Positions 20,390-48,800 of a stretch of 64,000 nt of DNA are shown in pieces. A program made the translations under genes and the position numbers. The notes under the pieces were generated by a model. That model saw nothing but the letters and a program-made list of their open reading frames with translations, was not told the origin of the DNA and searched no databases. The DNA comes from Convolutriloba macropyga (Eukaryota), in the NCBI RefSeq assembly GCF_964194025.1, contig NC_134476.1:24924001-24988000 (forward strand), read 5' to 3'. Position 1 is the first letter of the stretch. Each line of letters starts with the position of its first letter.

Positions 20390-20953
20390 TATCATGTGCT
20401 CAAATATTATGTATTCGCTAGTGGTTGTTCATTTTGGTTGAAAGCAATTCTAGTTGATCAAATTGATTTGTTTACTCGAGTAAAATCTTTCAAATTAAAA
20501 CTTTTCTGGCAAGAACGAATACGTTGCTGAATTAACGATGGTTGTTCACAGCATTACAGCTTCAACAATTTAGCGAACAAAAATTGTGCTGAGCACCTAT
20601 TACAATTTAACGATTTTTCTGTTATTATTCACTATTGGATAGCTTTAGCGGTTTGGATCTTCGAATGGGTGAGTCGACAATCCCTTCGACAGCTGAAGAT
20701 CTTCTCTGGTAAAAACTTTATTTCAGTAATACAACTGTTTATTAGCGAGCAACTATTTTGTCTGTTACAATTTTAATATCTTGTTATTTACATTCAAATA
20801 TAGGCAAATATTAAACAGATTTTTCCAAAGTTGATTGGAATTCAGTAGTAAAGTTCAATTATGTAATAATGTGAACAAAATGATGGCATAATAAGAGTTA
20901 GTTAAATAACAGTAAAAGGTCAACGTTTGAACTTGGGTTTGAGCTACGTCATA
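20390..20953 (-). repeat. 3' LTR
   Basis: Direct repeat of 33065-33628, preceded on the minus strand by the polypurine tract. Confidence 0.96.
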
Positions 20954-21279: not shown

Positions 21280-23665
21280 TCAAAGATCAGTTTCAATGCG
21301 TTGAGAACAAGTTTGTGAGAGACATGGGTCTGAATTTGATTCTACGTTTTTGTTCAACGTAGATAATGAAGTGCGTGAGCGAGATTTACTTCTCGGTCTA
21401 GTGGCTTCAGTCAGAATGTGATAGTTGTCTTTCCATTTTTGTGGAATGGCATCAGCAGCAATGTTGTCCTTCACACTAATGACTGGTTTGACACCAATGT
21501 CGTCATTTTTTGATTTGAGGAATGATGGAACAAATTTACGAATGATCTTAAATCTGTGATAAAGATAGAGAAATAAAATGTGTAAAATTATGTTCCCAAT
21601 GAAAACAATAACTGTAAGCGACAAAGACAACTTTAATGGGACGTATTCTTTGAATTCAGACACAAGTGTAGGCTTTAACGTTCTCATATCAGCAGTGATT
21701 GGTCTCGCAATCTGAACCAAGTCATCACTTTATTTTTGGGCTTCGAATCAGCTCTGCTCTCACTTTTCTCAGAAGCTCTACTCCCGCTGTTGTTCGAGAC
21801 TCGAAGTAGGGCATCTGATCGATTTGTGGAATTTCGCTCATCAAATGCTCTAAGGGATCTGGTAGCTTAACGTCGATAAGTTTCGCTTCAACTCGGTCGC
21901 AGCTCTCGAGATCGGATCGAATCTTCAAATTTTCTCCAACAATTATTTGATAGTTGCATTCGACTGTTATAATGCATATCTTGCATCCCGGAATTATTCT
22001 GTTCCATGACTTATGTACAGAATCAAGACTGTACTCACGCATTTCATAAGAATCTGAAGCCGAGGTGATTAGCCAAATGCCGTATCCTAAATTGGCAGCA
22101 TTCGCTTGCGTAGGAAGGTAAAATACTTCCGTGTCGCAAGTCTCCGCTGCTTTTAGGGTCGAACTAACGAAAAGGGTTGCCAGGCAAGAAGGATGATTCG
22201 TTTGGGTAGCGATAGTCTCATGGCATATTCGGTATCTAGCTGATCCTAGACATGCCTCAAACTGATCTTTTGAAAGTGTTACCGATTCCATTTGATCCTC
22301 TGATATGGCAAGATAGGGCGCTTCTATGACCCATCGGATTGCCATACGAGGTTCTGGCTGTGGCATCGGAACTATTTGCGCCTGGTACGTAGAAAAAACA
22401 GTTTGTCGCGAGGCCAACGGAATGGCAAGTGTAAGAACTAGTCCTTCATCCAAAGTCACGACATCTCGAAGAAGTTTTGCGTCATAATATGATAATAAAT
22501 CTGTTGGGGGTATGGCTAACGACAATCTGCTACCACTTAAAGACTGGTCAGCAGCGACAGATTTCAGTATAGCAAGTAGAGATTCTTTGGGTACCAAGGA
22601 CATTGGTAAATGTTGTTGTAGTAACGTTGGGATGGCATTTAGGACATTCATGCGATACGTGTAGAGAGCTGTTCTATAGCTTTTGACGTCCGCATAGAGC
22701 ATTGAGAGAAGAGAAGCTGCTGTGTCGAAGTTGAAATTGAGCTGTTGGTTCGAGAACAGCATTTGGGTGCAGTCTCGTAGAATGTGGAAGTTGCCCTCGA
22801 AAACTTTAAATTGCTCCTCGATGATAGCCCAATTTTTATTCTGTGTCTCTATCATCTGGTTTTGTGTCTCCCTAATCTCTTTTAATTCATTCCCAACTAA
22901 GAAAAACTTTTCATCAGTTGCAGTTTTTATCTGCATTACGTAGTCCGTCAGTGATGAAGTGAAACTGTATAGTCGATCAATATTAGCTGCATTCTCTTTA
23001 GCTCTGTCCTGGCATGATCCAAAAATGCCAGAGAGACCGCATCCGCCTCCATTTCCCATGAGGACACCAGAACCAAAGAGCCCTATTCCAGCCATAGCAG
23101 CGACTGCGACATGTGCTCCTCGTTTAACTCGGTTGTTTGTTCCTCTGATTTCATCACTGTTTTGAAGAAAGGTTGAAGTTTCGTTTCGAATGAGTCGAAC
23201 ATCCAGACTCGACTTATTGACTTCTTTCTCTATCTTTGACAAGATCCAATCAACATTGAAAGATGAGGCATTTCCATTAAAACTGGATGAGAAATCAAGT
23301 GGACACTGGATTGATGGTAATTTCCACATGTCATTCAAGCGTCTGAGTAATGTATTCAACTCTGGTTTTAAGGAAAAGTTGTACGATGGAAATGGAACCA
23401 TGAATTGAACAGGGACGAACTTTTCAGCCAAGAGAATTTTCGTTTCTTCGTTGAAAATTATTCCTTTTTCGAGTACGTCATCAAAGTTGCGCTCTTCTGA
23501 TGATCCAGCAGTATGAATATACATTAGGATGAGTTTAAGGAATAACGTGGCAAGCTTCATCATTCTAAACATGTGAACATTTGTGACTTTGTGTTTCAGG
23601 AGTGGAGTCATATGAGAAGTGTTACAGGTTTTAGTATAGAGAAAAGATATGCAGGTTTTTATCAT
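21280..23665 (-). pseudogene. env: Env-like class I fusion glycoprotein (baculovirus F / errantivirus env-like), one frameshift at about 21730
   Basis: Signal peptide MMKLATLFLKLILMYIHTAGS, furin site RVKR followed by fusion peptide GAHVAVAAMAGIGLFGSGVLMG, heptad repeats and a Cys-rich ectodomain. The TM segment LSLSLTVIVFIGNIILHILFLYLY lies in the downstream frame (21720-21280). Confidence 0.88.
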
Positions 23666-23680
23666 AATATTGTCAGTTAA

Positions 23681-23793
23681 CAGTACCGCCGACTGTGGCG
23701 TTAGGTGTGGGAACTATCAGGTTCACAAGTTATGTAGGTTTGTAAGGTAATTGATTCAGTTCAAAGCAGTACCGCCGACTGTGACGTAAGGTG
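23681..23793. repeat. 27-bp direct repeat between the divergent env and antisense genes
   Basis: cagtaccgccgactgtggcgttaggtg (23681-23707) and cagtaccgccgactgtgacgtaaggtg (23767-23793). Confidence 0.85.
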
Positions 23794-23900
23794 AAAAACA
23801 AGTTTCAAAATATGCAGTTGTGCATTAATGTGTGCAGTTTTTATAATTTTTAATCAAGAAGGCTACGTGAACTCAACGGAGTATATTCTTCAGAGTAAGA

Positions 23901-24217
23901 ATGGATGAGTTCGTAACTATGGCAATAATATTGTTTTTGCGTACGCGCAAAACTAACAGCACCATTCTTACGACGAATGAAAAACGAAAGGAGTTCCGCG
24001 ACTTGTGTCGTTTTTTTGAAGAGAAAGACGGCAAATTGGTCGCAAAAAGCGATCATTCGGTGGTTCCCACCCTTGCAGAAGTTGAAGCAGCTCTCCGAGA
24101 CGAGCATTACAAGGGGTTTAGCCATCTGAAGACTCGTTCGTCTCTCCGGGAGGTGTTGACGGGAAAATCTTGGTCCTACCCACCGAAACTTGGGGGATTC
24201 ACTCGGCTTGTAGAAGA
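23901..24217 (+). CDS. Antisense accessory gene of the LTR element, exon 1 (integrase-like H2C2 domain, N-terminal half)
   Basis: ATG ORF ...KRKEFRDLCRFFEEKDGKLV...VVPTLAEVEAALRDEHYKGFSHLK...WSYP...LVE ending at a consensus donor GA|GTGAGT. Confidence 0.75.
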
Positions 24218-24341
24218 GTGAGTTCTCTTTCAAGTTGATATTTTATAACAAAAAGTAACTGCATTAAAAGAGTTAAGGAAATTGTTCTAAAAGTAGAGAA
24301 AGCGTTGACTATCTGCGTAAACTGGAGCTTTGATTATTCAG

Positions 24342-24598
24342 GTTTGTCAGGACCTGTCCTCATTGTTACACTGAGGAGAACCAAAAAAGGCGGTTTCTTT
24401 GTACGGCTGTTTCGGAAAATCGCAAGAGAGCTTGGTGTGAACAGTTTGGTTTCACTTTTGTGAAAGATGCGGTTAAATACACCAACTCTGTTTGTGAGCT
24501 CGGGACTCCGGAACCAGCCGGGAAACCAAAATATGCTGAGGTTCATGGACAGTGTATTTTCTCTAGCATTTATTATCTGATTGTGGGGAAACGTTCAG
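24342..24598 (+). CDS. Antisense accessory gene, exon 2 (CxxC completing H2C2; OTU-like catalytic Cys motif)
   Basis: Acceptor ttattcag|. The in-phase join gives VEEFVRTCPHC. The frame stays open to AEVHGQCIFSSIYYLIVGKRS; donor G|GTTAAT. Confidence 0.72.
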
Positions 24599-24663
24599 GT
24601 TAATCAGCTTGCTGTTTTTTTTTTAAATTCATCATTGTTTCGAAAATTCTACATTTTATATAG

Positions 24664-24880
24664 GTGCGAAGTCAAAGAGTGCAGGAAAATCTAAGAAGAT
24701 GAAATCCTCTCCCTGCAATAAATTGAGGATTGCTACAGGGACTTTTATGCTGGAGAGCAAGGCTTTTTCATCTTTTTGTGCTCTCAAATACCATGTGTTA
24801 TGCAATGACTTCGAGATCACCACAATCGGGATAATGTAGGCCCTGTAGGAGAACATTGGGTTCGAGTTAAAATTTTTTTG
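24664..24880 (+). pseudogene. Antisense accessory gene, exon 3 (remainder of OTU-like domain, apparently frameshifted near 24809)
   Basis: Acceptor attttatatag|, in phase. Reads ...CNKLRIATGTFMLES...KYHVLCND, then stops at 24837-24839, while the -1 frame reads RDHHNRDNVGPVGEHWVRVK. The 3' end is uncertain. Confidence 0.5.
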
Positions 24881-25618
24881 CTTTCATTTGATCATTCTAG
24901 CTCACTGAACTTGGTGATTCATTTAGATTCTTGGTCTGGCTTGGCTATTGGGGCTAGACATTTACGTCTTTTGGGAATATTCTTCTGTTTCGTGTTGGGA
25001 GAGGTACATGCACTCTCCAACAAGTCAAAGTGGGGGTCCAGCACTTCTCCTGCATGTAAAACACAATGAGCATTACAATGCTTACCATTGTGAACCCCTA
25101 CTAGAGTTCCCGTCAAGAGAGTATGTCTTTCTCTATTTTTTTTACTCTTTTTTTGAAAAATTAATCATTTTTTTTTGAATTGAAGTACTGAAGGTGAATT
25201 TGATTCCTCCGGAGTCAACGGAGAAATTGGTCCTCGCGCTGCGAAGCGTTTGAGGAGTGACTCGGACTGAAAGTTGAGTTATGAGAAACTTATATTGAAT
25301 AAATTCAAATTTTTCATTGAACTCAACAGTTTTGACCTCATCACATTTGCGAAGAAACACTGAAGACATCTCAGAATACTCAATCCTTATCGGTTTTTCT
25401 CTCTACAGCTTTGCGGGTGATCATTTCGACGGTTTTTAGTGGCAAAAAGTGCAATTTTTCTCGAAGAAATAGGTGAATATAAAAAGCGCAATGAGATAAA
25501 GGTCAGAAAAAAAGTTCTTCCAAATCAGTTCAAACTTATCGGAATCGAATCTACATGCAAAAATAAGGTCGCAGACTAACTAAATTGGAGAAATTTTTTT
25601 TTTTGAGAATTTTTTTTT

Positions 25619-26033
25619 TCAAACAAAGAAATGAATTTCAAGTGATAACGAGCTGAAAATACCAAGAATAATCTTGCAGACGTGAGCCCAATCTAGACCC
25701 GAGTAGGATTCGAGCTGCTTCATGGCAATTTTTTCCACATTTTTGTCCTGAATGTGAAACTTTAATGTGTTTAAGCCTGCTATCAGGTTTGAATAACTTC
25801 CTGGTTCGAACTCTGTGTCTCTAACAATGAGGTTAAAGACAAACCGCTTCTGAAAGTTATCAAAAACAGATATCACTGATCCTTTGGCGTAACTTCTTGT
25901 GTCTTTTACGTTATCAAAAGAATTGATATTGAAAAATTCTAGGTTGTGAAATTTGTTTTCATTAGAAGTTGTTTGAACTATTGTGTCTGTAAAGTGTCGA
26001 ATATCTGATGTATGGTAATAAACCTGCAATTTA
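25619..26033 (-). other. TARG1/OARD1 (Poa1p/DarG-like) macrodomain at the integrase C-terminus
   Basis: RFVFNLIVRDTEFEPGSYSNLIAGLNTLKFHIQDKNVEKIAMKQLESYSGLDWAHVCKIILGIFSSLSLEIHFF aligns by eye with TARG1 [75 protein letters not shown]. Confidence 0.8.
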
Positions 26034-29000
26034 TTTGCCTCAAGTGTGTTCATGTTGTTAGAACTACTCTGCTCCTTTGCTTTTCTTATTCTGGTTCTAC
26101 AACCAACTGCTAATTTTGTGATCGGTGACAGTTCCTTTGCCGTTGCGGCTGTTCTCGGAGTTGAAGTACTTGTTCCAGGTGCATCAGTTTCACCTAATTG
26201 TTGATTTTTCACTTCTGTGCTTCTTTTGACGTCCAGTTTTGTTGCTCTAGATTCAGCTGCATTAGGATTTTTGATTAGACGTTCCATGTTTTTTCTATAT
26301 GACTGTTTAATATTACTTTGTTTTTCCGATTTCTTCAAGTGCGAATGTGGAATCAACATCTTTCCATCTATTGTACGAACCACATGCGGGTGATCCTTGT
26401 TAGCAGGTGCTGGAGAACGTGTTCCTTTTTTGAATTGTACTTTTCGAGGTTGGGTCTTTGATTGTCTCTCATTGTCTTCAAATAAATTGCGTCCTGTTTC
26501 ACGCTTAATTGATATTGGTGTTTCTGTTTTCTCGTACTCATCGGATTGTGCTTCCTCCTGCGTATTGGCGGGCTCTGTCGTGGTTTGCTGTGGCTCTCTG
26601 TCTGCGTTGTGGCCGTTGAATTGTTCAAATTGTTCAGTTTCACTTTCATTATTGACTTCTGGGAAAAATGGAAGTTCGGCAAAGTTGTCTACGACTTCGT
26701 CATTTTCTTCTATTGGAATGTTAGCCATCTGCTCTCCTTGTAGGTCGCCAGCGTCTTCTGCCGGTTCGAAAGGCTGAGCAGGGACATGGGGAACTATTGG
26801 AGCCACAGCAGGTGCAGGCAGTGCTCCTGCTGCGGCCATTGGGAAAGAGAGTGTGACTGTTGCAGGTGGTTGCTCTGTTTGATCTTCTTGATTTTCTTGT
26901 GGCACGTCGTCAATAAAATGGTGTTCAAGCAGTTTTGGAATTTGTTCATCGAACAATTCTGGTTCTTGTCTGTTTTTTCCCAAAAGAGGATCAGGAACGA
27001 ATTTGTTCGGATCAATGTCATCAAGATCTGATGACTTCACGTTTGTTGTATAGGGTCGAAGTCTTATACGGTGTACGCATTGTGTGAACAAAGTGCCAAC
27101 ATTTCGAATCAGGTAGTTTGAATTTGTTAGTACTCTCTCAATTCGATACAACGGCAGCCAAACAGTCATTGATTTATATCCAAAGTCAGATTGATTCATG
27201 AGCTTTGGGTTAAGTAGCAGGCAAAACGAATTAAGTGCTAGAGGGCTTGAAAGTGCCTTTTCGTCATAGTATGTTCGATACTTATGATAAGCGTGTATTA
27301 ATTTTGACTTATTCTCGGAAAATTTTTGCTGCATAGCATCTTGCAATTGGATAACAAAGTCAGATTTCGGATCAAGATTTTTCAGATTTTTATTGTTGAA
27401 CCTCACATCCAAGGGTTTAATCGGTTCACGACCGTGAAAAATTGATGTGGGTGTGCAACCTATTGACGAATAATATGAGGTATTATGAATGTAGGTTGAT
27501 AGAGGCACATATTTGTGCCAGTTGGACCATTGTTCATTAGTATTGAGTTTAAGAATTCTTTTCAGCGCTCCGTGTGCTCTCTCAACAACACCTACAGATT
27601 GCGCGTGCTTAAGTGTGGCGTGTTTAAGCTTTACTTCAAGCAATTGTGCTAACTCGTGCATTAGATCGGATACGAAACTACTGCCTAAGTCTGACAAAAT
27701 CGTATGCGGTATATAACTGTGTTGGAAAAATATTGATGTGAGCTCTTGTGCTACTCTTTGTGCGCTTACATTAGTGAGTGGTACAGCAAAAAGGTATTTG
27801 GAGAAAACATCAATACCAGTCAAAGCATACTTATAAATAGTTCCACGAAGTGGACCGACTAGGTCGATTTGAAGCATGTCCCCGGGAAAGGACTGTAGTG
27901 ATGATAAGGGTTGCAAAAATGTTTTTAGCGCTTTATTGGAAATGAGTTTTGTCTGTATACATGTTAGGCAATTTTTGATAGCATTTAGAAGATATTCTGT
28001 AAACCCAGGAAAATAAAATCTTTTTCTGAACTCAAAGGCAGTTCTAACTATTCCTATGTGTCCAGCAATTTTCGAATTATGCAATCTATAGATTACCTCT
28101 TTCCAAAGGTGTTTAGGCAGGCAGTACTGGTTGTAGAGAACTTTGCCAGTGTCATCAAAAAACTGTCGATACAGAACATCATTTTCAATTGTTAGTCTAT
28201 TGAATTGCTTAGCGTATTTTTTAAAAAGAGTGCGAATGATGCGTACTTGATATCCTCAACAGTGTTATTTTGTTTCCAAAAGATAACACGCTTTATAACT
28301 TCATCTAATGACTGCTCATGTTTAAGGTCGATAGGATTCAAGCGTTCAGTCAAGTCGTGCAAAAAATCGGCAGGATCATGCATCAAAACTGCATTGAGTT
28401 CTGGACCTTTTGATTTCAAACGAATAAAAGTTTGTATTTCATCGTCGTCGGTTTTTGAACTTTGCTCCTCAATTTGTCTTAAAATTCCATCTGGTATTCC
28501 AGATTGCTTCAACTTATCAAGCATTTCAATGCTGACGTTTGCTTTTTGTTCAAGTAAACACTCGATATTTGCCAATGAACTGAGTGATACGTCAGGCGTT
28601 TTGGCTGTTGACTCAATTTCTATCTCTCTAATTGGCATTCTATCCGTCAACTTTAGTTTCATTGTTTGCGATGGGTCAGTTTGCGACCTCGAAAGGAAAT
28701 CGGCAGCGTAATTTGCTCTGCCAGGAATGTGAGCGATAACAAGGTTGTATGACAAAACACGGTCAAGAAAATTCCATAGCGACGGTGGAATACTTTTTGC
28801 TTGGAAAAATTGGGTTAAACTTTTGTTGTCAGTAAGGACTATTACAGCTTTTTCCGTACCCCAAAGATAATGAGAAAAATGCTCAAGGGCAAAATAAAGT
28901 GCAAGAAATTCCTTATAGTAGACTGAGAATTTAAGCTGAGCGTTATTAAACAGTTTTGAACCAAACGCCACTGGCGCATAAGTTTTTCTGTTCTCATTTT

Positions 29001-31265
29001 TGTTGTTTTTAACATAATCCTCAATCATCAGTACAAAACCGGTGCCAAAATAACTGGCATCGCAGAGTAGAACATACTGCAATCCTGGTTTAGCTAATCT
29101 TAACGTTAAATCAGTTGCTTTTACAAGATCGGTTTTGACTATTTCAAGATGTTTTTCGTGTTCCTCTGTTAAGACAGGTTCAATATCCTTTCTCAGTAGC
29201 TTGTAGAAGGGCATGAGTTTATCTCCCAAATTGGGTATAAAATCACGCCAAAACTGGACAAAACCAACTAAACGCTTTACCTGTTTTGGTGTTCGGGGTA
29301 ACTTGATTGTTTTGAGAAACTTTTCGATTCTTTTGGATTCTGGTTGTATACCTTCTGGTGTTATAATTTTTCCAAGAAACTTGACTTTTTGCGTGGCAAA
29401 TGTACATTTATTTGGTGAAAGTTTAAGACCTGATGTTCTTATGCATTCAAATATTTTTCTGAGACTTGGAATCAACTCATCAAAATTTTTTACTGCGCTT
29501 CCTATGTCATCCATATACTGAGTGCAGATGTTTGCTGCAAGACAAGAATCTAAATAGTGCCTGATAAATGAACTGAATCCTGTTACGGACTTGCTTAGAC
29601 CTTGTGCTTAACACTTGTATGCATAGGTGCGAGAGGAAAAATTAAAGGCTAAAAGTTGGACTGAAAGATCATCCGCCATTTGAACACAGTGGTATGCCTG
29701 CGAACAATCAAGTTTTGTAAAAAAGGATTTTCCTGCAGAGTGATTTGAAGCATCGCTCATGTTTGAGATTGGAAAATTACTATTGATATAGTCATTTCTT
29801 AACAGATGATTGATACGCCTTAAGTCAATAAGAATTCTCAGTTTGCCAGAATCTTTGCGTTGCGCAAATATTGGACTACTGTACTTTGAATGTGATAAGG
29901 TCGTGATCAAATTATAGTAGTGCATCAATGCAAGTTCTACTGTGAGCTCATCTCTCAGGTGTATTGGCGTTTGTTGACTTTGAACATAAACAGGAAGGTT
30001 ATGCTCAGGTGTAAGTTTGATCTTTAACTCTGTGTTATAACCTACATCGAAACGGTGTTTAGCAAATATATCAGAAAATTCCACTAGTAACTTTTCTACC
30101 TGACATTTTTGCTCAAAGGTTAAAACAGAATTTTGCCAATCGAACTTTTCAAGAAAAAGGTCACGATCTTTTGCGTTATTCTTGGGGTCAATTTTTTCAA
30201 GATTTTGAAAGTGCAGAATTTGATCATAAATATCACGCTGCAAAGGAGACAATTTGCTGGGACTGTCACAGGTTTCAGGGGTCGGAAACCAAAGTTTTTC
30301 ATATTCTGGTTTTGGTCTGGTTTGATTCAGAGGCTGAAAGTTTTTTGTTTGAACAAGTTGATTAATTTCAGCTTCCAAGTTTTCGTGGCTTTTCATTTTT
30401 GCCAAAGCAATAAGCTGCGGGTCTACATTAACTAGCTTTTCTGTTTGTTTTTCATTCAAAATTTCAAAAAAGGCGACCTTTGAATCAACACATAGGGTTA
30501 TTTTGTGGTCAGTGATATTAAGTGCTGAAATAAAAACTCTACTTTTCTCATCTAATGTACTCAAGGATGATGTTAGAGCTATTTCCGTTTCGTTTTCAAA
30601 CTGAGTGCAAGGTATTATTACTCCACTGCAATTTTCTAAATTAGGAAAGCTCTTGTCGAGATAACATTCAAGCAATTGATGTGAGTTGGGCTGTAGTTCG
30701 TGTTTTTTACTCAGTAATATTGGAATTTTCTTCAGTTTTTTAGATGTTTGCCTCTTTTTATCTTTTGGCTTTATTTCATTAAGTTGTATTGTCATTTCAG
30801 GTAATTTCAATAAATTATAAGCGGGACTAATGTCGATAAAATTTTTCTTGAAGAAAGGGTTTCCTAAAATGACGGTATTCATTGTTGGAAGAACTAAAAA
30901 ACTATCACTGAAATGATGATTGCCAATTGTGAATTTTACTTTGATTTGCTGTTTTACTACAACTGGGGCACTTGAAGCTAACTTAACAGTGTTATAAGTG
31001 GGAGTTTCTACCTCAAAACAAATTTGTTTTTCCTCGAACTCATTTAATAAGGATAATGGGATAGCGTTTGAGCAAGATCCTGAGTCAATTAAAGCTCTTC
31101 GGCGAAGACTATTATCAAATTTTATTCTAACATAGGAGAGAGTTTCTCCTTCTAGAGGGATTACTGCGCAAATATTATCCTCAATCTGCATGTCTGAGTC
31201 TAATGAAGTATTTACATGTAAAGATTGATTTGATGAGCTGGTATCTAATGGAACTTGTGGCTTAT

Positions 31266-32495
31266 CTAGTTTTTTGAAGACCGTTGAAACGGAAAATTTG
31301 TTCCACCTCTGCGTCCACGTGATCGCATTGAGCAATTAGTTGCCAAATGATTTGGATAACCGCAGATATGGCAAATGATTTGGGCATATTGAGAAACAGG
31401 AACATGTGTTTCCTCAATTGGTTGAAAAACTTGAACAACTGGTTGCTCATTACTTGCTGTTTGTTGTTCTTGGATCGGTTGAAAGTTTTGCGGCGTTGTC
31501 GGCGCAAACTGTGGAGCATTTGGAGTATATTGGAAATTATTTTGAGCAGGGAATGAGAACTGGTTGTTGAAGTTATTGAAACCTCTGTATCCTCTCGATC
31601 TACCATAGCCTCGAAAATTTCCTCGACTTCGGTAGTTTGAATTGTTATATGAACCTCTTTGTCCACGGTTTGAGCCTCTAAAACCATTTCCCCGAAACTG
31701 ATTTCCAAAATTCTGACCTTGTGAAAATTTTTGCTCATCGAAACGTTTATTTTGCTCCTCGACTTGCTTACTTAAAGCGCTCATTCTATTTTCCATAGAT
31801 TCCTGCGTTTGGCTAAGTTTTGATAAAGCATTTATCAAATTATCTGAAATTGTTGGACTCACTTCGTTAAAAGCTCCGTCAATATAGTCCTCTTTTTTGC
31901 AAAGGTCGTGGATGGTCAGTTGCTTCCTAGCCAAGAGGCATGAATCCTCAACTGTTGTGTTGTCTGGTTGTTCCAACAACTTTGCTCTAAGCCAGCTAGG
32001 CATACATTTTTTGAAAAAGCGCTTCGTCTGATTTTGTCTCTCTTGTTGTGCAAAACGTAAATTCTCATCATTTCTAGCATCTACGGCATCTTGAGCCGCC
32101 TGATCCGCTCCGGGTGGATACGCCTCGGGTATGGGATCAGGATAAGCTTTCAAAGTCATATTTTGCAGGGACACAAGAAAATTTTCTGGTGAATCAGTTT
32201 TTGGGTAGAAACGAACATTTTCTAACTTGATTACATGTAACTCTTGCAACTGTGGGTTGCAGAAATGATTTCTTAACGCCGTTAAACTTAGAGCTAAATC
32301 ATTGCGTGTCGCTTCTGGTAAAGTCTGGAAATATCTTAGAGCTGCATCTCTCAGATGCAATTGCAAAAAGTTAGCCTGTTGGGCTCCTGCTACTGCTGCA
32401 ACTCCTATAATGCTTCTTAAAAGATGCTCGAACTCTCGAAAACTTTCTTTATCTGTACCGCTGAACGGTTTTAAGGCAATGTTAGGTTGTGCCAT
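31266..32495 (-). CDS. gag: Gag (capsid-like region, coiled coil, RG-rich segment, CCHC zinc knuckle)
   Basis: 409-aa ORF after the PBS; FSG...LHLRDAALRYF gypsy capsid pattern; CHICGYPNHLATNC knuckle. Confidence 0.92.
   Translation of the reverse strand: MAQPNIALKPFSGTDKESFREFEHLLRSIIGVAAVAGAQQANFLQLHLRDAALRYFQTLPEATRNDLALSLTALRNHFCNPQLQELHVIKLENVRFYPKTDSPENFLVSLQNMTLKAYPDPIPEAYPPGADQAAQDAVDARNDENLRFAQQERQNQTKRFFKKCMPSWLRAKLLEQPDNTTVEDSCLLARKQLTIHDLCKKEDYIDGAFNEVSPTISDNLINALSKLSQTQESMENRMSALSKQVEEQNKRFDEQKFSQGQNFGNQFRGNGFRGSNRGQRGSYNNSNYRSRGNFRGYGRSRGYRGFNNFNNQFSFPAQNNFQYTPNAPQFAPTTPQNFQPIQEQQTASNEQPVVQVFQPIEETHVPVSQYAQIICHICGYPNHLATNCSMRSRGRRGGTNFPFQRSSKN
31269..31275 (-). promoter_or_regulatory. 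gag-pol -1 ribosomal frameshift slippery heptamer A AAA AAC
   Basis: TCA AAA AAC TAG at the gag stop; the -1 frame is the open pol frame (FKKLDKPQ...). Confidence 0.8.
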
Positions 32496-33046
32496 TTTAT
32501 GTGCTCTAAATTTAAGTGTTTTAGCTTTGTAGTGTAGTTGAGTTGGTTGGACAGTGGTTCAACTTGCCGAGGAATTAAGAATTTTTAGTGTAGTCTCTTG
32601 TTTTGATGGCCTTAGACTTATTTAGATTCAAGATTTGAGTAAATGTAAAGGTTTCAAGCTTGATTATTTCTGAGAATCATATTCCTTACTGTGATCAATG
32701 TTTCAAATCAGTTTTGATGATTCAAATCAACAGAATGAAATCAGGAACAGATAGAGGTGTGGCGTTATCATAAAAGCACTGTATTAATTCACTGCACAAA
32801 AGTTGAAATCTAACGAACCCTTGTAGTCACTATGTTGTTGCGTCTGCCTATCAGCGTCAGCTCTGGCCACAGGGATATTGGTCACATGAAATCACAATTC
32901 CACCAAGCTGCAGTTCTCACTGTACTGATTTGAAACTGTACTGATTTGGATGGATACTGCTCGTTGTTCTGTTTTAGCCCTTCAATTCCGAAGTTGACAG
33001 TGGTGAGGATCTTTTCGAAGGTATTGGCTCACTATCCTGTCGATTG

Positions 33047-33064: not shown

Positions 33065-33628
33065 TATCATGTGCTCAAATATTATGTATTCGCTAGTGGT
33101 TGTTCATTTTGGTTGAAGGCAATTCTAGTTGATCAAATCGATTTGTTTACTCGAGTAAACTCTTTCAAATAAAAACTTTTCTGGCAAGAACGAATACGTT
33201 GCTGAATTAACGATGGTTGTTCACAGCATTACAGCTTCAACAATTTAGCGAACAAAAATTGTGCTGAGCACCTATTACAATTTAACGATTTTTCTGTTAT
33301 TATTCACTATTGGATAGCTTTAGCGGTTTGGATCTTCGAATGGGTGAGTCGACAATCACTTCGACAGCTGAAGATCTTCTCTGGTAAAAACTTTATTTCA
33401 GTAATACAACTGTTTATTAGCGAGCAACTATTTTGTCTGTTACAATTTTAATATCTTGTTATTTACAATCAAATATAGGCAAATATTAAACAGATTTTTC
33501 CAAAGTTGATTGGAATTCAGTAGTAAAGTTCAATTATGTAATAATGTGAACAAAATGATGGCATAATAAGAGTTAGTTAAATAACAGTAAAAGGTCAACG
33601 TTTGAACTTGGGTTTGAGCTACGTCATA
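33065..33628 (-). repeat. 5' LTR
   Basis: Direct repeat of 20390-20953 with about 6 substitutions by eye. Followed on the minus strand by the TGG-PBS. Confidence 0.96.
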
Positions 33629-38595: not shown

Positions 38596-41500
38596 AGTGT
38601 ATCCTACCTCCGTTTATCTCTTATATGTCCAGTCAGATTTTTTCAGATGCTAACTTAAAAGTTCTACGTTTTGCGCGACTTAGACCTCTAAAAATTTAGG
38701 TAGACAACACCCTAATATGCTCTTCGGCCTTAGTTAAGCATACAAAAACAAGTTTTCAACAATATTTGTAATTTTGAGAGTCGCACTAATGGTAGCAAAT
38801 AAAGCTCTATATATACATTACAATTCGCACCATGGGCACACAAGTTATGGTCAAAAACGGGAAATCCCTTACCATAAATAATATTGAATTGAAAGTCAAC
38901 AACTTTTGACTTCTTCAATAAAATCAACAAAAATAAAGCGCATCAAGGAAAATAGGTTGAGGGAATGGAAATCAGGAAATGAAAGGGTTTGGGAGGACGG
39001 AAATGTATTTGGGGGGAAGAAAATGTTTGCAAAGCTATTTAATGTTCAATTGAACAGCTCGAAGAGTCTTTAGTATTCATTATTCATTCAGTTCTTTGGT
39101 TTGTATTTCAGGACTCTAATGATGTTTTTATATTTCATCGTCAATCATTTTGTTCTGACATCTCGTTTCGAATCAGCTTTTCTGCATTCATTCCTGCTAT
39201 TAACTGAATAAATTGTGGGTCTGCCGCCTTATTTATACTTATTGTTTATTCATTCGCGTGAATATAGCTTATTGATGGCACACGACTTAGCTCACTCTCA
39301 AAATAATATGTCATTTCTCCAAAAATGAGTTTGCTAGTTGAACTTAATAGACAGTTAGGTTAGTTGAGGATAATATCTTAACCTAATTGAAGCCTAATTG
39401 AGGGTAAAATTAGAGCAGATGATTGTGACAGATTTTAGACATGGTCGAAATTCTAACAAATCTTCACTTCCAATTTTTAGGTCTTTCTTTTGAGACTACA
39501 GCCTTGAAGGCCAAAGCAGCAATATTATCAATCTGTCAGCTCTGTTCTTTTATTCGTTCATCTTCATTTTAATTAGTTTCCATTTAGTGAAGAGAGTTTT
39601 TCTGGTATAATTGGTAACAAAGAACAATTCGAGATAGAATACCAACAAATTGAAAGCTGCTGTCTATTTTTTAAAAAAAATATAACAACCAAAATCATTA
39701 GGTAGACCGTCAAACTATTATAGAACAACTCGCCCAAATCCCAGCGCCAGCCCCACTTTTTCTTATAAACAAAAAGTGTTCAAATTTCGTAGCTTCAAAA
39801 AAGGAAAACTCAGCCTCTAAATAGGACAATAAGCTGAAAATCAATAACAGTTAGCAGTGTACTCTCGGGATCTCTGATAATATACCGCACTAAGACAAGT
39901 CTCCACAGACATATGTCTAAGCCCGGCTTCCTTGTTTTGACATTGCTTATTGACAATTACCGCAATTGAAACATTGAGTAAGGTAACTCAATAACTAATT
40001 GACCCTAAGTGTATCCTACCTCCGTTTATCTCTTATATGTCCAGTCAGATTTTTTCAGATGCTTACTTAAAAGTTCTACGTTTTGCGCGACTTAGACCTC
40101 TAAAAATTTAGGTAGACAACACCCTAATATTTATGCTCTTCGGCCTTAGTTAAGCATACAAAAACAAGTTTTCAACAATATTTGTATTTTTGAGAGTCGC
40201 ACTAATGGTAGCAAATAAAGCTCTATATATACATTACAATTCGCACCATGGGCACACAAGTTATGGTTAAAAACGGGAAATCCCTTACCATAAATAATAT
40301 TGAATTGAAAGTCAACAACTTTTGACTTCTTCAATAAAATCAACAAAAATAAAGCGCATCAAGGAAAATAGGTTGAGGGAATGGAAATCAGGAAATGAAA
40401 GGGTTTGGGAGGACGGAAATGTATTTGGGGGGAAGAAAATGTTTGCAAAGCTATTTAATGTTCAATTGAACAGCTCGAAGAGTCTTTAGTATTCATTATT
40501 CATTCAGTTCTTTGGTTTGTATTTCAGGACTCTAATGATGTTTTTATATTTCATCGTCAATCATTTTGTTCTGACATCTCGTTTCGAATCAGCTTTTCTG
40601 CATTCATTCCTGCTATTAACTGAATAAATTGTGGGTCTGCCGCCTTATTTATACTTATTGTTTATTCATTCGCGTGAATATAGCTTATTGATGGCACACG
40701 ACTTAGCTCACTCTCAAAATGATATGTCATTTCTCCAAAAATGAGTTTGCTAGTTGAACTTAATTGACAGTTAGGTTAGTTGAGGATAATATCTTAACCT
40801 AATTGAGGGTAAAATTAGAGCAGATGAGTGTGGCAGATTTTAGACATGGTCAAAATTCTAACAAATCTTCTTTTCCAATTTTTAGGTCTTTCTTTTGAGA
40901 CTACAGCCTTGAAGGCCAAAGCAGCAATTTTATCAATCTGTCAGCTCTGTTCTTTTATTCGTTCATCTTGATTTTATTTAGTTTCCATTTAGTGAAGAGA
41001 GTTTTTGTGGTATAATTGGTAACAAAGAACAATTCGAGATAGAATACCAACAAATTGAAAGCTCCTGTCTATTTTTTAAAAAAATATAACAACCAAAATC
41101 ATTAGGTAGACCGTCAAACTATTAGAGAACAACTCGCCCAAATCCCAGCGCCAGCCCCACTTTTTCTTATAAACAAAAAGTGTTCACAATTCGTAGCTTA
41201 AAAAAGGAAAACTTAGCCTCTAAATAGGACAATAAGCTGAAAACCAATAACAGTTAGCAGTGTACTCTCGGGATCTCTGATAATATACCGCACTAAGACA
41301 AGTCTCCACAGACATTATGTCTAAGCCCGGCTTCATTGTTTTGACATCGCTTTTTGACAATTACCGCAATTGAAACATTGAGTAAGGTAACTCAATAATT
41401 AATTGATCCTAAGTGTATCCTACCTCCGTTTATCTCTTATAAGTCCAGTCAAGATTTTTTCAGATGCTTACTTAAAAGTTCTACGTTTTGCGCGACTTAG

Positions 41501-42820
41501 ACCTCTAAAAATTTAGGTAGACAACACCCTAATATTTATGCTCTTCGGCCTTAGTTAAGCATACAAAAACAAGTTTTCAACAATATTTGTATTTTTGAGA
41601 GTCGCACTAATGGTAGCAAATAAAGCTCTATATATACATTACAATTCGCACCATGGGCACACAAGTTATGGTCAAAAACGGGAAATCCCTTACCATAAAT
41701 AATACTGAATTGAAAGTCAACAACTTTTGACTTCTTCAATAAAATCAACAAAAATAAAGCGCATCAAGGAAAATAGGTTGAGGGAATGGAAATCAGGAAA
41801 TGAAAGGGTTTGGGAGGACGGAAATGTATTTGGGGGGAAGAAAATGTTTGCAAAGCTATTTAATGTTCAATTGAACAGCTCGAAGAGTCTTTAGTATTCA
41901 TTATTCATTCAGTTCTTTGGTTTGTATTTCAGGACTCTTATGATGTTTTTATATTTCATCGTCAATCATTTTGTTCTGACATCTCGTTTCGAATCAGCTT
42001 TTCCGCATTCATTCCCGCTATTAACTGAATAAATTGTGGTTCTGCCGCCTTATTTATACTTATTGTTTATTCATTCGCGTGAATATAGCTTATTGATGGC
42101 ACACGACTTAGGTCACTCTCAAAATATTATGTCATTTCTCCAAAAATGAGTTTGCTAGTTGAACTTAATTGACAGTTAGGTTAGTTAAGGATAATATCTT
42201 AACCTAATTGAAGCCTAATTGAGGGTAAAATTAGAGCAGATGAGTGTGACAGATTTTAGACATGGTCGAAATTCTATCAAATCTTCACTTCCAATTTTTA
42301 GGTCTTTCTTTTGAGACTACAGCCTTGAAGGCCAAAGCAGCAATTTTATCAATCTGTCAGCTCTGTTCTTACATTCGTTCATCTTCATTTTATTTAGTTT
42401 CCATTTAGTGAAGAGAGTTTTTATGGTATAATTGGTAACAAAGAACAATTCGAGATAGAATACCAACAAATTGAAAGCTGCTGTCTATTTTTTTAAAAAA
42501 ATATATCAACCAAAATCATTAGGTAGACCGTCAAACTATTATAGAACAACTCGCCCAAATCCCAGCGCCAGCCCCACTTTTTCTTATAAACAAAAGTGTT
42601 CAAATTTCGTAGCTTCAAAAAAAGGAAAACTCAGCCTCTAAATAGGACAATCAGCTGAAAGCCAAAAACAGTTAGCAGTGTACTCTCGGGATCTCTGATA
42701 ATATACCGCACTAAGACAAGTCTCCACAGACATTATGTCTAAGCCCGGCTTCATTGTTTTGACATCGCTTTTTGACAATTACCGCAATTGAAACATTGAG
42801 TAAGGTAACTCAATAATTAA
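38596..42820. repeat. Tandem array, three ~1.41-kb units
   Basis: agtgtatcctacctccg recurs at 38596, 40008 and 41412; the units are nearly identical. Confidence 0.95.
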
Positions 42821-45800
42821 AGGTGAAAATCGTGATCTAAGTAAAAAAAACTGATCGAAAACTAAAAAGAAAAAAGCATGCCATAAAGTATTGTATTGAT
42901 ACAATCCGAACAGTTGAATGAAAAAACGAAAATATTGTGCCCAAGTAGCAGACTAAATGACAATCACAGCAGCCAAACAGACAAACGTAGCTTCACAGAA
43001 TCAGAAAAAATAGCATTCCAAGTGTAAATACTTTTATGATCAGTGTGTTAAAACATAAAATTCCCTTGAGTATCTGGGTCCAAAATTTAGAGACAATACT
43101 GATTTAAAAAATTATTGTATGGACAGCACCATGCCAAAAAAGTTACCTAATTCTTCAGCTCCAAAAACATGGAAGTATGAAAATATTCCAAAAACTTCAA
43201 ACAAGAAAATCACAGCGAATTTGTTTTCCTCTTCATACTTATGAATGCCAAACCAAGTTTTCATACTCAATTTCATATAATAAGTAACCTGCATGCTAGC
43301 AGAAAACTTGCTGCACATACAGGGGCAAACAGAAAAGAGAAATAAAAATTGGAAATAGCCAAGAGTACAAGAAATTTGCATATGTTCGCTATGTCCGCAA
43401 AATCAAAAATTCAGCCACTAAAACATACATTGAAAAGTTTCATTGCACCCAACAAAAAAAAAACAAATTTCATAAAACTATGAAAAGGTTTTGATCATAA
43501 TTTTATGAAAATCTGATAAGTCATATTTCTCTGACACCAGACACTATCCAGTAACCAATCTTCCAGCTCTAAGTTCCAAATTGCCACAGTTAATAAGAAA
43601 CCGTTCAAAAATTAATTCACCGGCTCGAGATACAACCCAGTAACACGCCCACAAGTCCCAAAAAGTTATTGCCTCCTAAGGATCAAAAATCTAAATTAAA
43701 AAAGAGCAAAGTATGCAAAAGACCTCAAAATTGGCAAAAATCACTATCATTTTAGGTGTTTAAGTTTGCATTAAGTTTGTGATTAAGTTTATTCATTTTG
43801 ACTTTGTGTTTAAGTCTAAACAATTTAAGTCTTTAAGTTTGTATTAAAACAACATAAAGCACGAAAAAGGGACATAAAAACAGATTATAGATTCCAAAAG
43901 ACCTTAATAAACATCGAAAAGCGTTAAATTAATATCCAACTAATCAAATTCCAGAAAATGTCAAAGACGATGAAAAATTGAACTTTTTGGGCTCAGAACC
44001 ATGTGACCTTTTCATCTTGAAATCAGCCTACCCAGCAGTTTAAGCACTCTAGGCACTTGAATTAAACTACTAAAGCCAGCTCAAGTTTTCCAGCGAAACA
44101 ATGCTCAATGGGCGTTACCTGTTATTCCGTTTTGAGAGCTCTTAAGTCAAGAACTTTTGAAAACAGAAAACAAAAGAAACCCGTAATTTTTGTTCCTTTG
44201 ATTATAGCCTGATCAGAATCAACATTTTAACCTGCCTTCTCCTTGATATCAAATTTTGACATCTCGCTTCAAATCAGCTGCTCTGCGTTCATAGTTTAAT
44301 TGATTGGTTAAATTCCGGGTCTGACGCCGTTTTTACACTTATTAGAGCGAGTTGTTTATTCATTCGCGTGAACTCACCAAAAAAAAGTCATTTCTCTAAA
44401 ACTGACTTGCCAGTTGAACTAAATTGTCGGTAGGGTCAGTTCAGGATAAAATCTTATCCTAAATGAAGCCAAATTGAGGCTCAATTTAGAGCACATGTGT
44501 GACAAATTATAGACATAGCCAGAATTCTATCAAATCTTCCGTTCCCGTTTTTTTAGGTCTTTATTTCGAGCCAGAAGTCTATCAAATTTTCCGTTCCCGC
44601 TTTTTAGGTCTTCCTTTTGAGACTAAAGCCTCGGAAGCTAAAGCAGCAATTTTCAATCTGCCAGCTATTTTCATTTACTTGTTTATCTTCATTTTATCTA
44701 TTTTCCATTCAGTGAAAAAAAATGTTAAGAACAGTTCGAGATAAAATACTAACAATTTGAAAATTTCTGTCGATTTCAAAAAAAAACAATCACGACCAAA
44801 ATAATTAGGTCGACCGTCCAATTTTCATAGAGCAATTCGTTAAAAATCACAACGGCAGCGAAAATTTCTCGAAGTGAAAAAAAATTTCTAATTTTGTAGC
44901 ATCAAAAAATGGCAAACTCAGCCTCTAAATAGAAGAATAAGCTGAAAACTAATAACAGTTAGCAGTGTACTCTCAGGAGTTCTGATAATTTACCGCACTA
45001 AGACAAGTGTTCACAAACAATATCTCTTAGATCCCGAGCTTCATTGTTTTCACATCGCTTTTTGACAATTAGCGCATTTTCGCAAATCTGTTGAACACAT
45101 TGAGTAAAGTAACTCAATATAATCAACGGTGAAAATCGCGATCTAAGTAAAAAAAAACTGATCGAAAACTAAAAAGAAAAAAGCATACCATAAAGTATTG
45201 TATTGATACAATCCGAACAGTTGAATGAAAAACTGAAAACATTGTGCCCAAGCAGCAGACCAAATGACAATCACAGCAGCCAAACAGACAATCATAGCTT
45301 CACAGAATCAGAAAAAAAAGCATTATCAAATAAGCACTTCAAATAAGAATATCATTGCCAAATTGTTTTCTTCAAATTTATGAATGCCAAACCCAGTTTT
45401 TCTTACTCAATTTTATATAACTACTAACTTGCATGCTAGCAGAAAACTTGAGTCACATACAGAGTCAAACAGAAAAGAAATAAAAAGTTGGAAATAACCA
45501 AGAGTATAAGAAATTTGCATATGTTCGCTATGTCCGTGAAACCAGGAGTTCAACCACTAAAACGCGTATTGATAAATACAATTGCCCCCGACAAAGTGAA
45601 AAAACCAATTCCATAAAAATATGAAAAGGTATGAAAAATTCTGATAAGATCGTATTTCTCTGAAGCTAAAAAATATCCAGTAACCAATCTTCCAGCTCTA
45701 AAGTTCCCAACTGCCACAGTTCATAATAGGAAACAGTTCCAAATTAATTCATCGGCTCTCGATACAACCCAGTAACACACCCACAAGTCCAAAAAAGTTT

Positions 45801-48800
45801 AGTGCCTCCTAATAATTGAAAAATCTAAATTAAAAAAAAAGTGAAAGTATGCAAAAGACCTCAAAATTGGCAAAAATCACTATCATTTTAGAGGTGTTTA
45901 AGTTTGCATTAAGTTTGTGATTAAGTTTATTCATTTTGACTGTGTTTAAGTCTAAACAATTTAAGTGTTTAAGTTTGTATTAAAACAACATAAAGCACGA
46001 AAAAAGGACATAAAAAAATTATAGCTTCCAAAAGACCTTAAAAAAATTTGAAAAGCGTTAAATTAATATCCAACTAACCAAATTCCAGAAATTGTCAAGG
46101 ATCATGAGAAATTGAACCTTTCGTGCTCAAGGTAACCTTTTCATCTTGAAATAAGCCTACCCAGCAGCTTCAGCACTCTAGGCACTTGAAATAAACTACT
46201 AAAGCCAGCTCAGGGCTTCCAGCGAAACTCAAAGCCCACTGGGCGTTACCTTTTCATTACGTTTTGAGAGCTCTAAGTCATAAAACTTTTGAAAACAAAA
46301 AACAAGAGAAACCCATAGTTTTCGTTCCTTTCATTATAGCCTGATCATTTTCATTATAGCCTGATCAGAGTCAACATTCTAATCTGCCTTCTCGCTGATA
46401 TCAAACTTTTCCATCTCGCTTCAAATCAGCTTTTCTGCGTTCATTGTGTAATTCATTGGTTAAATTGCGGGTCTGACGCCATTTTTACACTTATTAGAGC
46501 GAGTTGTTTATTCATTTGCGTAAACTCACAGAAAAAATTCATTTCTTTAAAACAAAATTTTGCCAGTTGAACTAAATTGTCGGTTAGGTCAGTTCAGGAT
46601 CAAATCTTAACTTAATTGAAGCCAAATAGGGGGCAAAATTTAGAGCACATGTGTAATAGATTATAGACAAAGCCAGAAATCTATCATATTTTCCGTTCCC
46701 ATTTTTTGGTCTTCGTTTCGAGACTACAGCCTCGGAAGCTAAAGCAGCAATTTTCTCTCAATCTGCCAGCTATTTTCATTTAACTCGTTAACTTTCATTT
46801 TCTGTTTTCTATTCAGTGAACAATGTTTTTGTGGTATAATTGGCAACAAAGAACAATTCGAGATATAATACCAACTATTTGAAAACTTATGTCTAATTTG
46901 AAAAAACATTAGCGACCAAAATCATTAGTTTGACCGTTATAGAGCAGTTCTGAAAACTCAAAACGACAGCCAAAATTTTATAGAGCAGTTCTGAAAACTC
47001 AAAACGACAGCCAAAATTTTTCTAAGTGACAAAAAAGTTCTAATTTCGTAGCTTCAAAAAATGGCAAATTCAGCCTCTAAATAGAAGAATAAGCTGAAAA
47101 CCAATAACAGTTAGCAGTGTATTCTCAGGAGTTCTGATAATTTACCGCACTAAGACAAGTGTTCACAAACATTATCTCATAGATCCCGAGCTTCATTGTT
47201 TTCACATCGCTTTTTGAGAATTACCGCATTTTCGCAAATCTGTTGAATCAATGATAGCTTCTGGTCAGTTGAAACATTGAGTGAGGTAACTCAAAAATCA
47301 AAGGTGAGAATCTTGATCTGAACAAATAAACTAATCGAAAAATAAACAGAAAAAAGCATACCATAAAGTATTGTATTGAGATACAATCCGAAGTTGAAAG
47401 AAAAATCGAAAATATTGTGCCCAAGCAAAAGACCAAATGACAATCACAGCAGCCAAACAGACAATCATAGCTTCACAGAATCAGAAAAAAGCATTATCAA
47501 ATAAGCACTTCAAATAAGAATATCATTGCGAAATTGTTTTCTTCAAATTTATGAATGCCAAACCCAGTTTCTCTTACTCAATTTTATATAACTACTAACT
47601 TGCATGCTAGCAGAAAACTTGAGTCACATACAGAGTCAAACAGAAAAGAAATAAAAAGTTGGAAATAACCAAGAGTATAAGAAATTTGCATATGTTCGCT
47701 ATGTCCGTGAAACCAGGAATTCAACCACTAAAACGCGTATTGATAAATACAATTGCCCCCGACAAAGTGAAAAAACCAATTCCATAAAAATATGAAAAGG
47801 TTTGAAAAATTCTGATAAGATCGTATTTCTCTGAAGCTAAACAATATCCAGTAACCAATCTTCCAGCTCTAAAGTTCCCAATTGCCACAGTTCATAATAG
47901 GAAACAGTTCCAAATTAATTCATCGGTTCTCGATACAACGCAGTAACACACCCACAAGTCCAAAAAAGTTTACTGCCTCCTAAGAATCGAAAAATCTAAA
48001 TTAAAAAAAAGAGAAAGTATGCAAAAGACCTCAAAATTGGCAAAAATCACTATCATTTTAGGTGTTTAAGTTTGCATTAAGTTTGTGATTAAGTTTATTC
48101 ATTTTGACTTTGTATTTAAGTCTAAACAATTTAAGTGTTTAAGTTTGTATTAAAACAACATAAAGCACGAAAAAGGGACATAAAGAAATTATAGCTTCCA
48201 AAAGACCTTAAAAAAATTTGAAAAGCGTTAAATTAATATCCAACTAACCAAATTCCAAAAATTGTCAAGGAACATGAGAATTTGAACCTTTCGTGCTCAA
48301 GGTAACCTTTTCATCTTGAAATCAACTTGAAAAAAACTACTAAAGCCAGCTCAGGGCTTCCAGCGAAACTCAAAGCCCACTGGGCGTTACCTTTTCATTA
48401 CGTTTTGAGAGCTCTAAGTCATAAAACTTTTGAAAACAAAAAACAAGAGAAACCCATAGTTTTCGTTCCTTTCATTATAGCCTGATCAGAGTCAACATTC
48501 TAATCTGCCTTCTCGCTGATATCAAACTTTGCCATCTCGCTTCAAATCAGCTTTTCTGCGTTCATTGTGTAATTCATTGGTTAAATTGCGGGTCTGACGC
48601 CATTTTTACACTTATTAGAGCGAGTTGTTTATTCATTTGCGTAAACTCACAGAAAAAATTCATTTCTTTAAAACAAAATTTTGCCAGTTGAACTAAATTG
48701 TCGGTTAGGTCAGTTCAGGATCAAATCTTAACCTAATTGAAGCCAAATAGGGGGCAAAATTTAGAGCACATGTGTAATAGATTATAGACAAAGCCAGAAA

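Follow-up and report, generated by a model that had tools for sequence, protein, structure and literature searches.

The window analysed here, a 64,000-nucleotide stretch of the genome of Convolutriloba macropyga, contains a complete 13.2-kb Ty3/gypsy-type LTR element on its minus strand. The element possesses its LTRs, gag, a pol with protease, reverse transcriptase, RNase H and integrase in this order, and a third, env-like ORF, which together make the errantivirus-like layout of env-bearing Ty3/gypsy elements. The 564-bp 3' LTR (20390–20953, minus strand), preceded by a purine tract, is 98.9% identical to the 5' LTR (33065–33628, minus strand), which is followed by a TGG primer-binding-like site, and inspection of the flanks revealed the 5-bp target duplication ACCAT on both sides of the element. 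The gag gene (31266–32558, minus strand) encodes a zinc knuckle that scores below the Pfam cut-off for zf-CCHC. In pol (25619–31335, minus strand), which occupies three frames in the window copy, Pfam recognizes the protease, reverse transcriptase, RNase H and an integrase with an H2C2 finger of its own, followed by a long tail. A large tandem array with units of ~1.4 kb and 2.1–2.3 kb occupies positions 38600–53200 of the window and is unrelated to the gene described below.

The env-like gene (21280–23713, minus strand) lies in two frames in the window copy. It contains an RVKR motif with a hydrophobic stretch behind it, as well as a hydrophobic segment at the C-terminus, which we take, with labels after class I fusogens, to be a cleavage-like site and the hydrophobic parts of an envelope protein; no sequence match to env was found in Pfam or the PDB, and a six-sequence profile gave nothing under E 0.2 against the PDB. 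A 27-nt direct repeat (23681–23707 and 23768–23794) is placed just before position 23798, the boundary of the cassette discussed below, and each of its copies resembles an env splice acceptor on the minus strand. The pol tail ends in a macro-domain-like module (25622–26041, minus strand), 39% identical to that of another element of the same genome (L178:7203–7682), the one among the six tested in which Pfam Macro was detected, at E 2e-4 and with 21.8 bits against a cut-off of 22. The macro-like module may be a third reader or eraser type within the same elements.

Between pol and env there is a gap of ~1.9 kb, occupied by a plus-strand gene, antisense to the element, with five predicted exons and a product of ~350 amino acids. 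Exon 1 (23901–24217), with its ATG at 23901 just 3' of a splice-acceptor-like site (23886–23893; a one-base variant of TTTCAG in the window), encodes an integrase-type N-terminal module with the predicted zinc-binding residues H69 and H75. It is followed by intron 1 (24218–24341; GT-AG, phase 2, 124 nt) and by exon 2 (24342–24598), which supplies the CxxC that completes the finger, the extension C..LG..F known from transposon-type OTUs and the predicted catalytic Cys (GQC). Intron 2 (24599–24663; GT-AG, phase 1, 65 nt), which one lineage lacks, leads to exon 3 (24664–24859), the putative OTU helical lobe, which ends in a Trp and is frameshifted in the window copy. After intron 3 (24860–24926; GT-AG, phase 0), exon 4 (24927–25120) encodes the putative OTU beta lobe with the predicted catalytic His and an acidic residue two positions further on (YHCEP), and after intron 4 (25121–25185; GT-AG, phase 2), exon 5 (25186–25270) adds a short conserved tail with a basic PRAAKRLR-like motif and the stop codon. 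The tail is present in nine other loci of six lineages, and its basic motif suggests nuclear localisation. An AATAAA (25298–25303, plus strand) is found 28 nt 3' of the stop codon, and one occurs within 200 nt of it in six of the nine other loci.

The original prediction of a hidden antisense gene, made from the letters of the window, had reached three of these five exons. Its reading of the ATG at 23901, of introns 1 and 2 and of one continuous frame across exons 1, 2 and 3 stands, as does its general interpretation as an intron-bearing antisense gene that joins an H2C2 finger to an OTU-like domain. Its gene end near 24880 was placed too early, as intron 3, exon 4, intron 4 and exon 5 come after the GEHW motif; exons 4 and 5 were recognised through a locus at 43% identity, which has the intron after GEHW, the YHCEP exon, a fourth intron and the tail. 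The His of GEHWV had been misassigned as the catalytic residue: its position is not conserved across the lineages, where H, Y, F, Q or S is found, and the invariant His is located in exon 4, with which the earlier caveat of a short Cys–His spacing falls away. A -1 shift had been invoked near 24809, but a programmed -1 frameshift in exon 3 was rejected, the change being a lesion private to the window copy. All eight close siblings of this copy (96–99% DNA identity) differ from it there, and exon 3 is open in six of the eight.

Searches of the 1.18-Gb assembly with exon 2 returned at least 144 matches among 150 scored candidates, with identities of 26–100%, and an internal stop is absent in 132 of the 144. 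Of forty diverse loci that were fetched, 35 have env upstream, on the opposite strand, and 24 have an integrase downstream within 8 kb; the six longer stretches were all whole LTR elements with LTRs 97–100% identical. Splice anchors were identified in 30 of the 40 loci, and there the splice sites are, as the original prediction required of related copies, held in common, in the same codon and the same phase. Acceptor 1 is an AG at the same codon position in 28/28; donor 2 is GT in 23 and GC in two of 27, the remaining two being the lineage that lacks intron 2 and a frame-broken copy; and donor 3 is GT in 27/27. Intron lengths range from 63 to about 210 nt across loci, with codon position and phase unchanged. 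The lineage without intron 2, as well as the public fragment P0004, has exon 2 running directly into exon 3 in the DNA, a natural check on the exon 2–3 junction.

The 45 distinct four-exon sets group into 12 clusters with 24–54% amino acid identity between them, which together with the intron-2-less lineage makes at least 13 lineages that keep the gene. Synonymous sites are saturated between the 12 clusters (pS 0.70–0.85, 66 pairs). Within lineages, dN/dS was below 0.5 in 35 of the 46 pairs with pS above 0.08 and 0.5–1.0 in the other 11, values to be read with the non-independence of the pairs and the downward bias of the pS filter in mind. Exons 1–4 are all open in 9/12, 5/5 and 4/9 copies of three other lineages, and in only 1/9 copies of the window's own. 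By the evidence of its sequences, this is a real accessory gene under purifying selection.

Several loci depart from the common arrangement. Tandem duplications of the antisense gene occur at L011/L012, L102, L105 and L084, and in some of these env is absent from the 8 kb covered. Among the OTU lineages, the most abundant (L174–L177) carries three diverged repeats of 170 bp in the interval from pol to the cassette; its exon 1 is longer and includes a YP motif similar to the one reported ahead of the Ginger1/Gypsy finger.

The residues expected of both modules are conserved throughout. H69 and H75 of exon 1 are invariant in 10/10 lineages aligned, C5, C8, C32, G69 and C71 of exon 2 in 14/14, and H54 and C55 of exon 4 in 13/13. 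Junction 1 joins the CxxC to the two finger His, with 35 residues from the second His to the first Cys (H-x(few)-H ... C-x2-C), and given the lineage-wide conservation, this is far beyond chance, in agreement with what had been argued from the window copy. The assignment of an integrase-type H2C2 finger is likewise upheld as a prediction by the invariant HH-CC and by fold matches to the PFV and Ty3 integrases. In a joint alignment with 33 OTU domains, the Cys (12/12), the His (12/12) and a Glu at His+2 (10/12) of the antisense proteins fall in the same columns, and the order of the putative triad, Cys-His-acidic, is that of the OTU cysteine proteases (PF02338 clan). The first position of the DGNC motif, already reported as other than Asp in the window copy, is altered in all lineages (to H, F, Y, S, W, N, G or K), and so is W-G-x-x-x-E, with the Trp placed later; the substrate may therefore differ from ubiquitin.

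Standard searches do not recognize the protein. Pfam gave no OTU or Integrase_H2C2 hit for single exons or for intron-containing read-throughs; PDB sequence profiles of exon 4, exon 1 and exons 2–4 gave nothing under E 0.2; the word-indexed homologue search found nothing with the read-through and, with exon 1, only a copy of the window's own lineage; and a JGI metagenome scan with one public fragment gave no match. In the language-model Atlas, exon 4 is placed beside OTU clusters (0.90, 0.88) and exon 1 beside Integrase_H2C2 clusters (0.90, 0.87; low recognition). Fold models were built from natural read-throughs with in-frame introns and include intron-derived residues (mean pLDDT 56), and all fold-search Z values are under 8. 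With the low-confidence model of exons 2–4 compared with 48,161 chains, the top 23 VIA rows were all OTU (best Z 6.9, rmsd 3.8, 126 aligned), and Foldseek likewise gave OTU matches, with E from 0.017 and all above 0.01. For the exon 1–2 model, the PFV, Ty3 and MLV integrases occupied rows 1–3 (PFV Z 6.7, Ty3 Z 6.4; unrelated 3.0), and at the profile level the module matches the elements' own integrase weakly (prob 20, E 0.001).

Among 1.84 billion representatives, a profile search produced 125 hits, mostly unnamed exon-sized fragments. The 29 longer hits that were scanned comprise 19 with Pfam OTU, seven with nothing and three unrelated repeats, and among the longer hits are a Pif1-helicase-plus-OTU protein and an SH3-plus-OTU protein, which are layouts of Helitrons and of Ginger1. 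A profile of the Pfam-positive OTUs matched the antisense protein with prob 98.9 and E 2.4e-17, its Cys and His aligning with those of the profile, and the query-only insertions in this alignment fall where the introns lie. The OTU-like domain is thus supported by the profile match, by the fold matches and by the invariant Cys and His, and we predict that the gene encodes a zinc-finger OTU cysteine protease. All the antisense OTUs group in a single long-branched clade (SH-aLRT 100), for which the tree indicates no clear donor. Of the 125 profile hits, 81 are <60% identical to the fetched loci, a set that includes true OTUs and possibly unfetched lineages of the same genome; public hit P0014 is likely from another genome, because it has no own-genome match above 35% among the 147 scored.

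Comparison of the window element with its relatives reveals a sharply bounded segment around the gene. Three elements are 92–96% identical to it over the 3' LTR and env and 87–93% over the integrase, with no DNA match across 23799–25613 (plus strand), which we take as the extent of an exchangeable cassette. One of the three is 94–98% identical to the window element in gag, pol and env, with an antisense protein only 30% identical; between the window and L093, the values are 98% in env, 95% in the integrase and 30% in the antisense protein. In a second pair, L107 and L086, they are 87%, 86% and 31%, respectively; the antisense-protein tree is in conflict with the env and integrase trees. A value of 30% beside 95–98% is beyond fast divergence alone and therefore argues for replacement of the cassette.

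Replacement extends to other putative enzymes. From 150 listed env matches, 20 loci without a nearby OTU-exon hit were picked; none of the 20 has the OTU gene, and 19 carry a JmjC-like ORF in the same place and orientation, while the remaining one has no pol–env gap. In this last locus (L202), env comes directly after a truncated integrase, probably through deletion or rearrangement. The JmjC-like antisense genes (L186–L201 and L203–L205, in the pol–env gap, opposite to env) are of three types. Type B (10 loci) has the motif H-x-D...H, with H76, D78 and H149 invariant in 5/5, and gives matches to PHF2, PHF8 and KDM7A with E between 2e-8 and 4e-7, its Pfam hits being below the cut-off; an exon-like ORF precedes it and is likely spliced to the JmjC ORF. 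Types C and D (9 loci) have H-x-E...H, are single ORFs of 360–470 amino acids without a Pfam or PDB match, and are linked to type B by profile (prob 92, E 7e-7). The PHF8/KDM7 group comprises demethylases for repressive histone marks.

In a 28-taxon integrase tree, the OTU and JmjC states interchange at least five times, and in one case an OTU lineage has two JmjC loci as its sisters, with 81–88% integrase identity. By these comparisons, the OTU gene is exchanged among lineages and swapped with JmjC-like genes in the same slot. The divergent OTU versions and their JmjC-like replacements make the slot an exchangeable accessory cassette of eraser-type enzymes, and this slot shared with JmjC-like genes goes beyond what the original prediction had seen. 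The JmjC loci and 22/40 OTU loci have a further gene located between env and the enzyme gene (L187:810–1115 and equivalents, antisense, adjoining the env start). It encodes a small Cys-rich membrane protein of ~90 amino acids, which bears a CCxNG motif and has a hydrophobic segment at its C-terminus; none was seen in the window's lineage.

Many starts of these genes share an upstream signal. TTTCAG is found at most 32 nt from the ATG in 8/12 OTU-gene lineages, with starts fixed by alignment, versus 3.8% of background ATGs and, in the same comparison, 1/21 internal acceptors. It also precedes 8/11 JmjC and 15/16 membrane-gene starts, these starts having been chosen with the motif in view. Its position suggests that a leader is joined there, in cis or in trans. 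Contigs from four runs (one study, kind unrecorded) cover introns and exons alike, with no joints, and are uninformative on expression.

Introns that are antisense to the genomic RNA escape splicing there and persist through reverse transcription. The orientation of the antisense gene would therefore allow its introns to be carried through reverse transcription, which fits all lineages seen. A separate antisense transcript would acquire a leader through the acceptor that precedes the ATG and be spliced, while the genomic RNA, made from the other strand, would retain the introns. The basic tail would take the protein to the nucleus, where the HH-CC module would tether it to chromatin or to the integration complex of the element. 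There, we consider with modest confidence, the product probably strips a ubiquitin or ubiquitin-like mark and so keeps the element out of host silencing. The substrate might be a repressive ubiquitin mark, with H2A ubiquitin as the first guess, or a ubiquitylated silencing factor. Removal of silencing-linked ubiquitin appears to be the likeliest job because the same slot otherwise holds relatives of demethylases, so that the anti-silencing reading is drawn by analogy with the JmjC occupants, whose activity is itself predicted.

The same enzyme might instead serve integration or protein stability, docking on the element's own integrase or intasome and deubiquitinating Gag, integrase or repair factors. 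The integrase fold modelled for the N-terminal module would suit such docking, Helitrons of the same genome also bear OTUs on their replication protein, and a role of this kind was suggested for the OTU and Ulp1 domains fused to Ginger1 transposases (PMC2836005). A helper of the integrase should track it, yet versions 30% alike are found beside integrases 95% alike, and 19/20 other relatives dispense with the OTU gene and carry a JmjC-like gene in its place; we regard this role as rather unlikely. Still less probable is that the enzyme counters ubiquitin-based innate immune signalling where an enveloped particle is made or enters, in the manner of nairovirus OTUs. Viral OTUs are among the best fold matches, but cellular OTUs tie with them in the ranks and the nearest OTUs by sequence are transposon-type. 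The small single-pass membrane-protein gene next to the slot and the fast exchange, which fits host conflict, would agree with immune antagonism, but a nuclear role is indicated by the basic tail and by the JmjC-like genes that occupy the slot in other elements.

It is very improbable that the gene is a decaying or passive remnant left by a nested DNA transposon of the Ginger type, or that its only importance is as antisense RNA. With its H2C2 finger, OTU and introns, it does have the layout of Ginger1 minus the DDE core (PMC2836005), and the window copy and most of its siblings are broken. However, the frame, splice phases and catalytic residues have survived the saturation of synonymous sites, the 9/12, 5/5 and 4/9 copies with open exons belong to three other lineages, and no inverted repeat of at least 40 bp surrounds the gene. 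A remnant is thus largely refuted as to function, while a Ginger-like origin of the gene is possible.

The anti-silencing reading can be widened to the whole antisense strand. Tentatively, and with rather more doubt than confidence, this strand may be a modular counter-silencing operon, in which the membrane-protein gene and an interchangeable mark eraser are expressed by TTTCAG leader splicing and swapped by recombination, like phage anti-defence hotspots. The eraser would then conceivably be either a deubiquitinase tethered through an integrase finger or one of several enzymes resembling JmjC demethylases, a proposal as tentative as the operon to which it belongs.

The escape of animal retrotransposons from silencing is mostly attributed to changes in their sequence or in their site of expression. 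Element-encoded erasers of repressive marks would, if the anti-silencing reading is true, represent a direct counter-attack on silencing. Near-identical elements with different cassettes are a natural experiment, through which the substrates become testable and could be read as a map of the host silencing pathway. The predictable chemistry of these genes makes the role of antisense ORFs in LTR elements testable as well. A multi-intron antisense gene is invisible to ORF-based annotation, and public collections therefore hold only exon-sized fragments of it.

Spliced antisense accessory genes are familiar from deltaretroviruses, for example HBZ, a bZIP factor. HBZ resembles the present gene in being spliced, antisense and accessory, but is neither an OTU nor a JmjC enzyme. 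In the openly available literature covered, no LTR element was found described as carrying an antisense gene for an OTU or JmjC protein.

The OTUs of animal Helitrons belong to the same OTU subfamily by profile and share with the antisense OTUs the C..LG..F extension and the W-x-x-Y strand. They are, however, part of or beside the Rep-helicase ORF and intronless in the loci read, whereas the antisense OTUs are a separate long-branched clade. The Helitrons of the same genome (L145–L163, L168–L173) carry an N-terminal OTU, some of them in single ORFs of ~2,500 amino acids.

Ginger1 transposases combine an H2C2 finger, a DDE core and an OTU, and their genes contain introns (Bao et al. 2010, PMC2836005). 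The likeness to the antisense gene lies in a Gypsy-type integrase N-terminus with an H2C2 finger, a C-terminal OTU and introns, and a Ginger1-like layout is present among the profile matches in P0091, with a Tf2-type SH3 (GPY/F) domain and an OTU. The antisense gene differs in that it has no DDE core or GPY/F, with 63 residues from the CxxC to the catalytic Cys in all lineages, and in that it is a passenger of an LTR element, with no terminal inverted repeats of at least 40 bp near the gene. A search of the same genome with P0091 as query gave no Ginger-like match. By its layout, a nested Ginger-like element minus its core is a plausible origin of the gene.

In the plant LTR elements Grande (gene23), RIRE2 and Retand, antisense ORFs located between pol and the 3' LTR are conserved in most copies, some of their products being nuclear; the review describes them as without clear protein homology or known origin and urges that spliced antisense transcripts be looked for (Vicient and Casacuberta 2020, PMC7264820). 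The plant ORFs are similar in being antisense, conserved and of proposed accessory role, while the gene described here differs by its four introns, predicted enzyme fold, pol–env site and exchange with other enzymes.

Metazoan env-carrying Ty3/gypsy elements share with the present host the LTR-gag-pol-env layout, multiple copies and young age; the main text of their description contains neither 'antisense' nor 'OTU' (Chary and Hayashi 2026, PMC13524379). The env of the Tor elements of Oikopleura has an internal promoter (PMC4402516). Bdelloid LTR elements also have an accessory position of variable content, with enzymes common to different types of element, but their ORF3 encodes esterases, exonucleases or env and replaces env (PMC5408684); the available parts of PMC5408684 and PMC6338049 contain no OTU. 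Antisense ORFs as such and Ginger1 H2C2-OTU fusions were known before; what appears new, within the literature covered, is an antisense slot for predicted erasers of the OTU and JmjC types, with an intron-bearing OTU gene.
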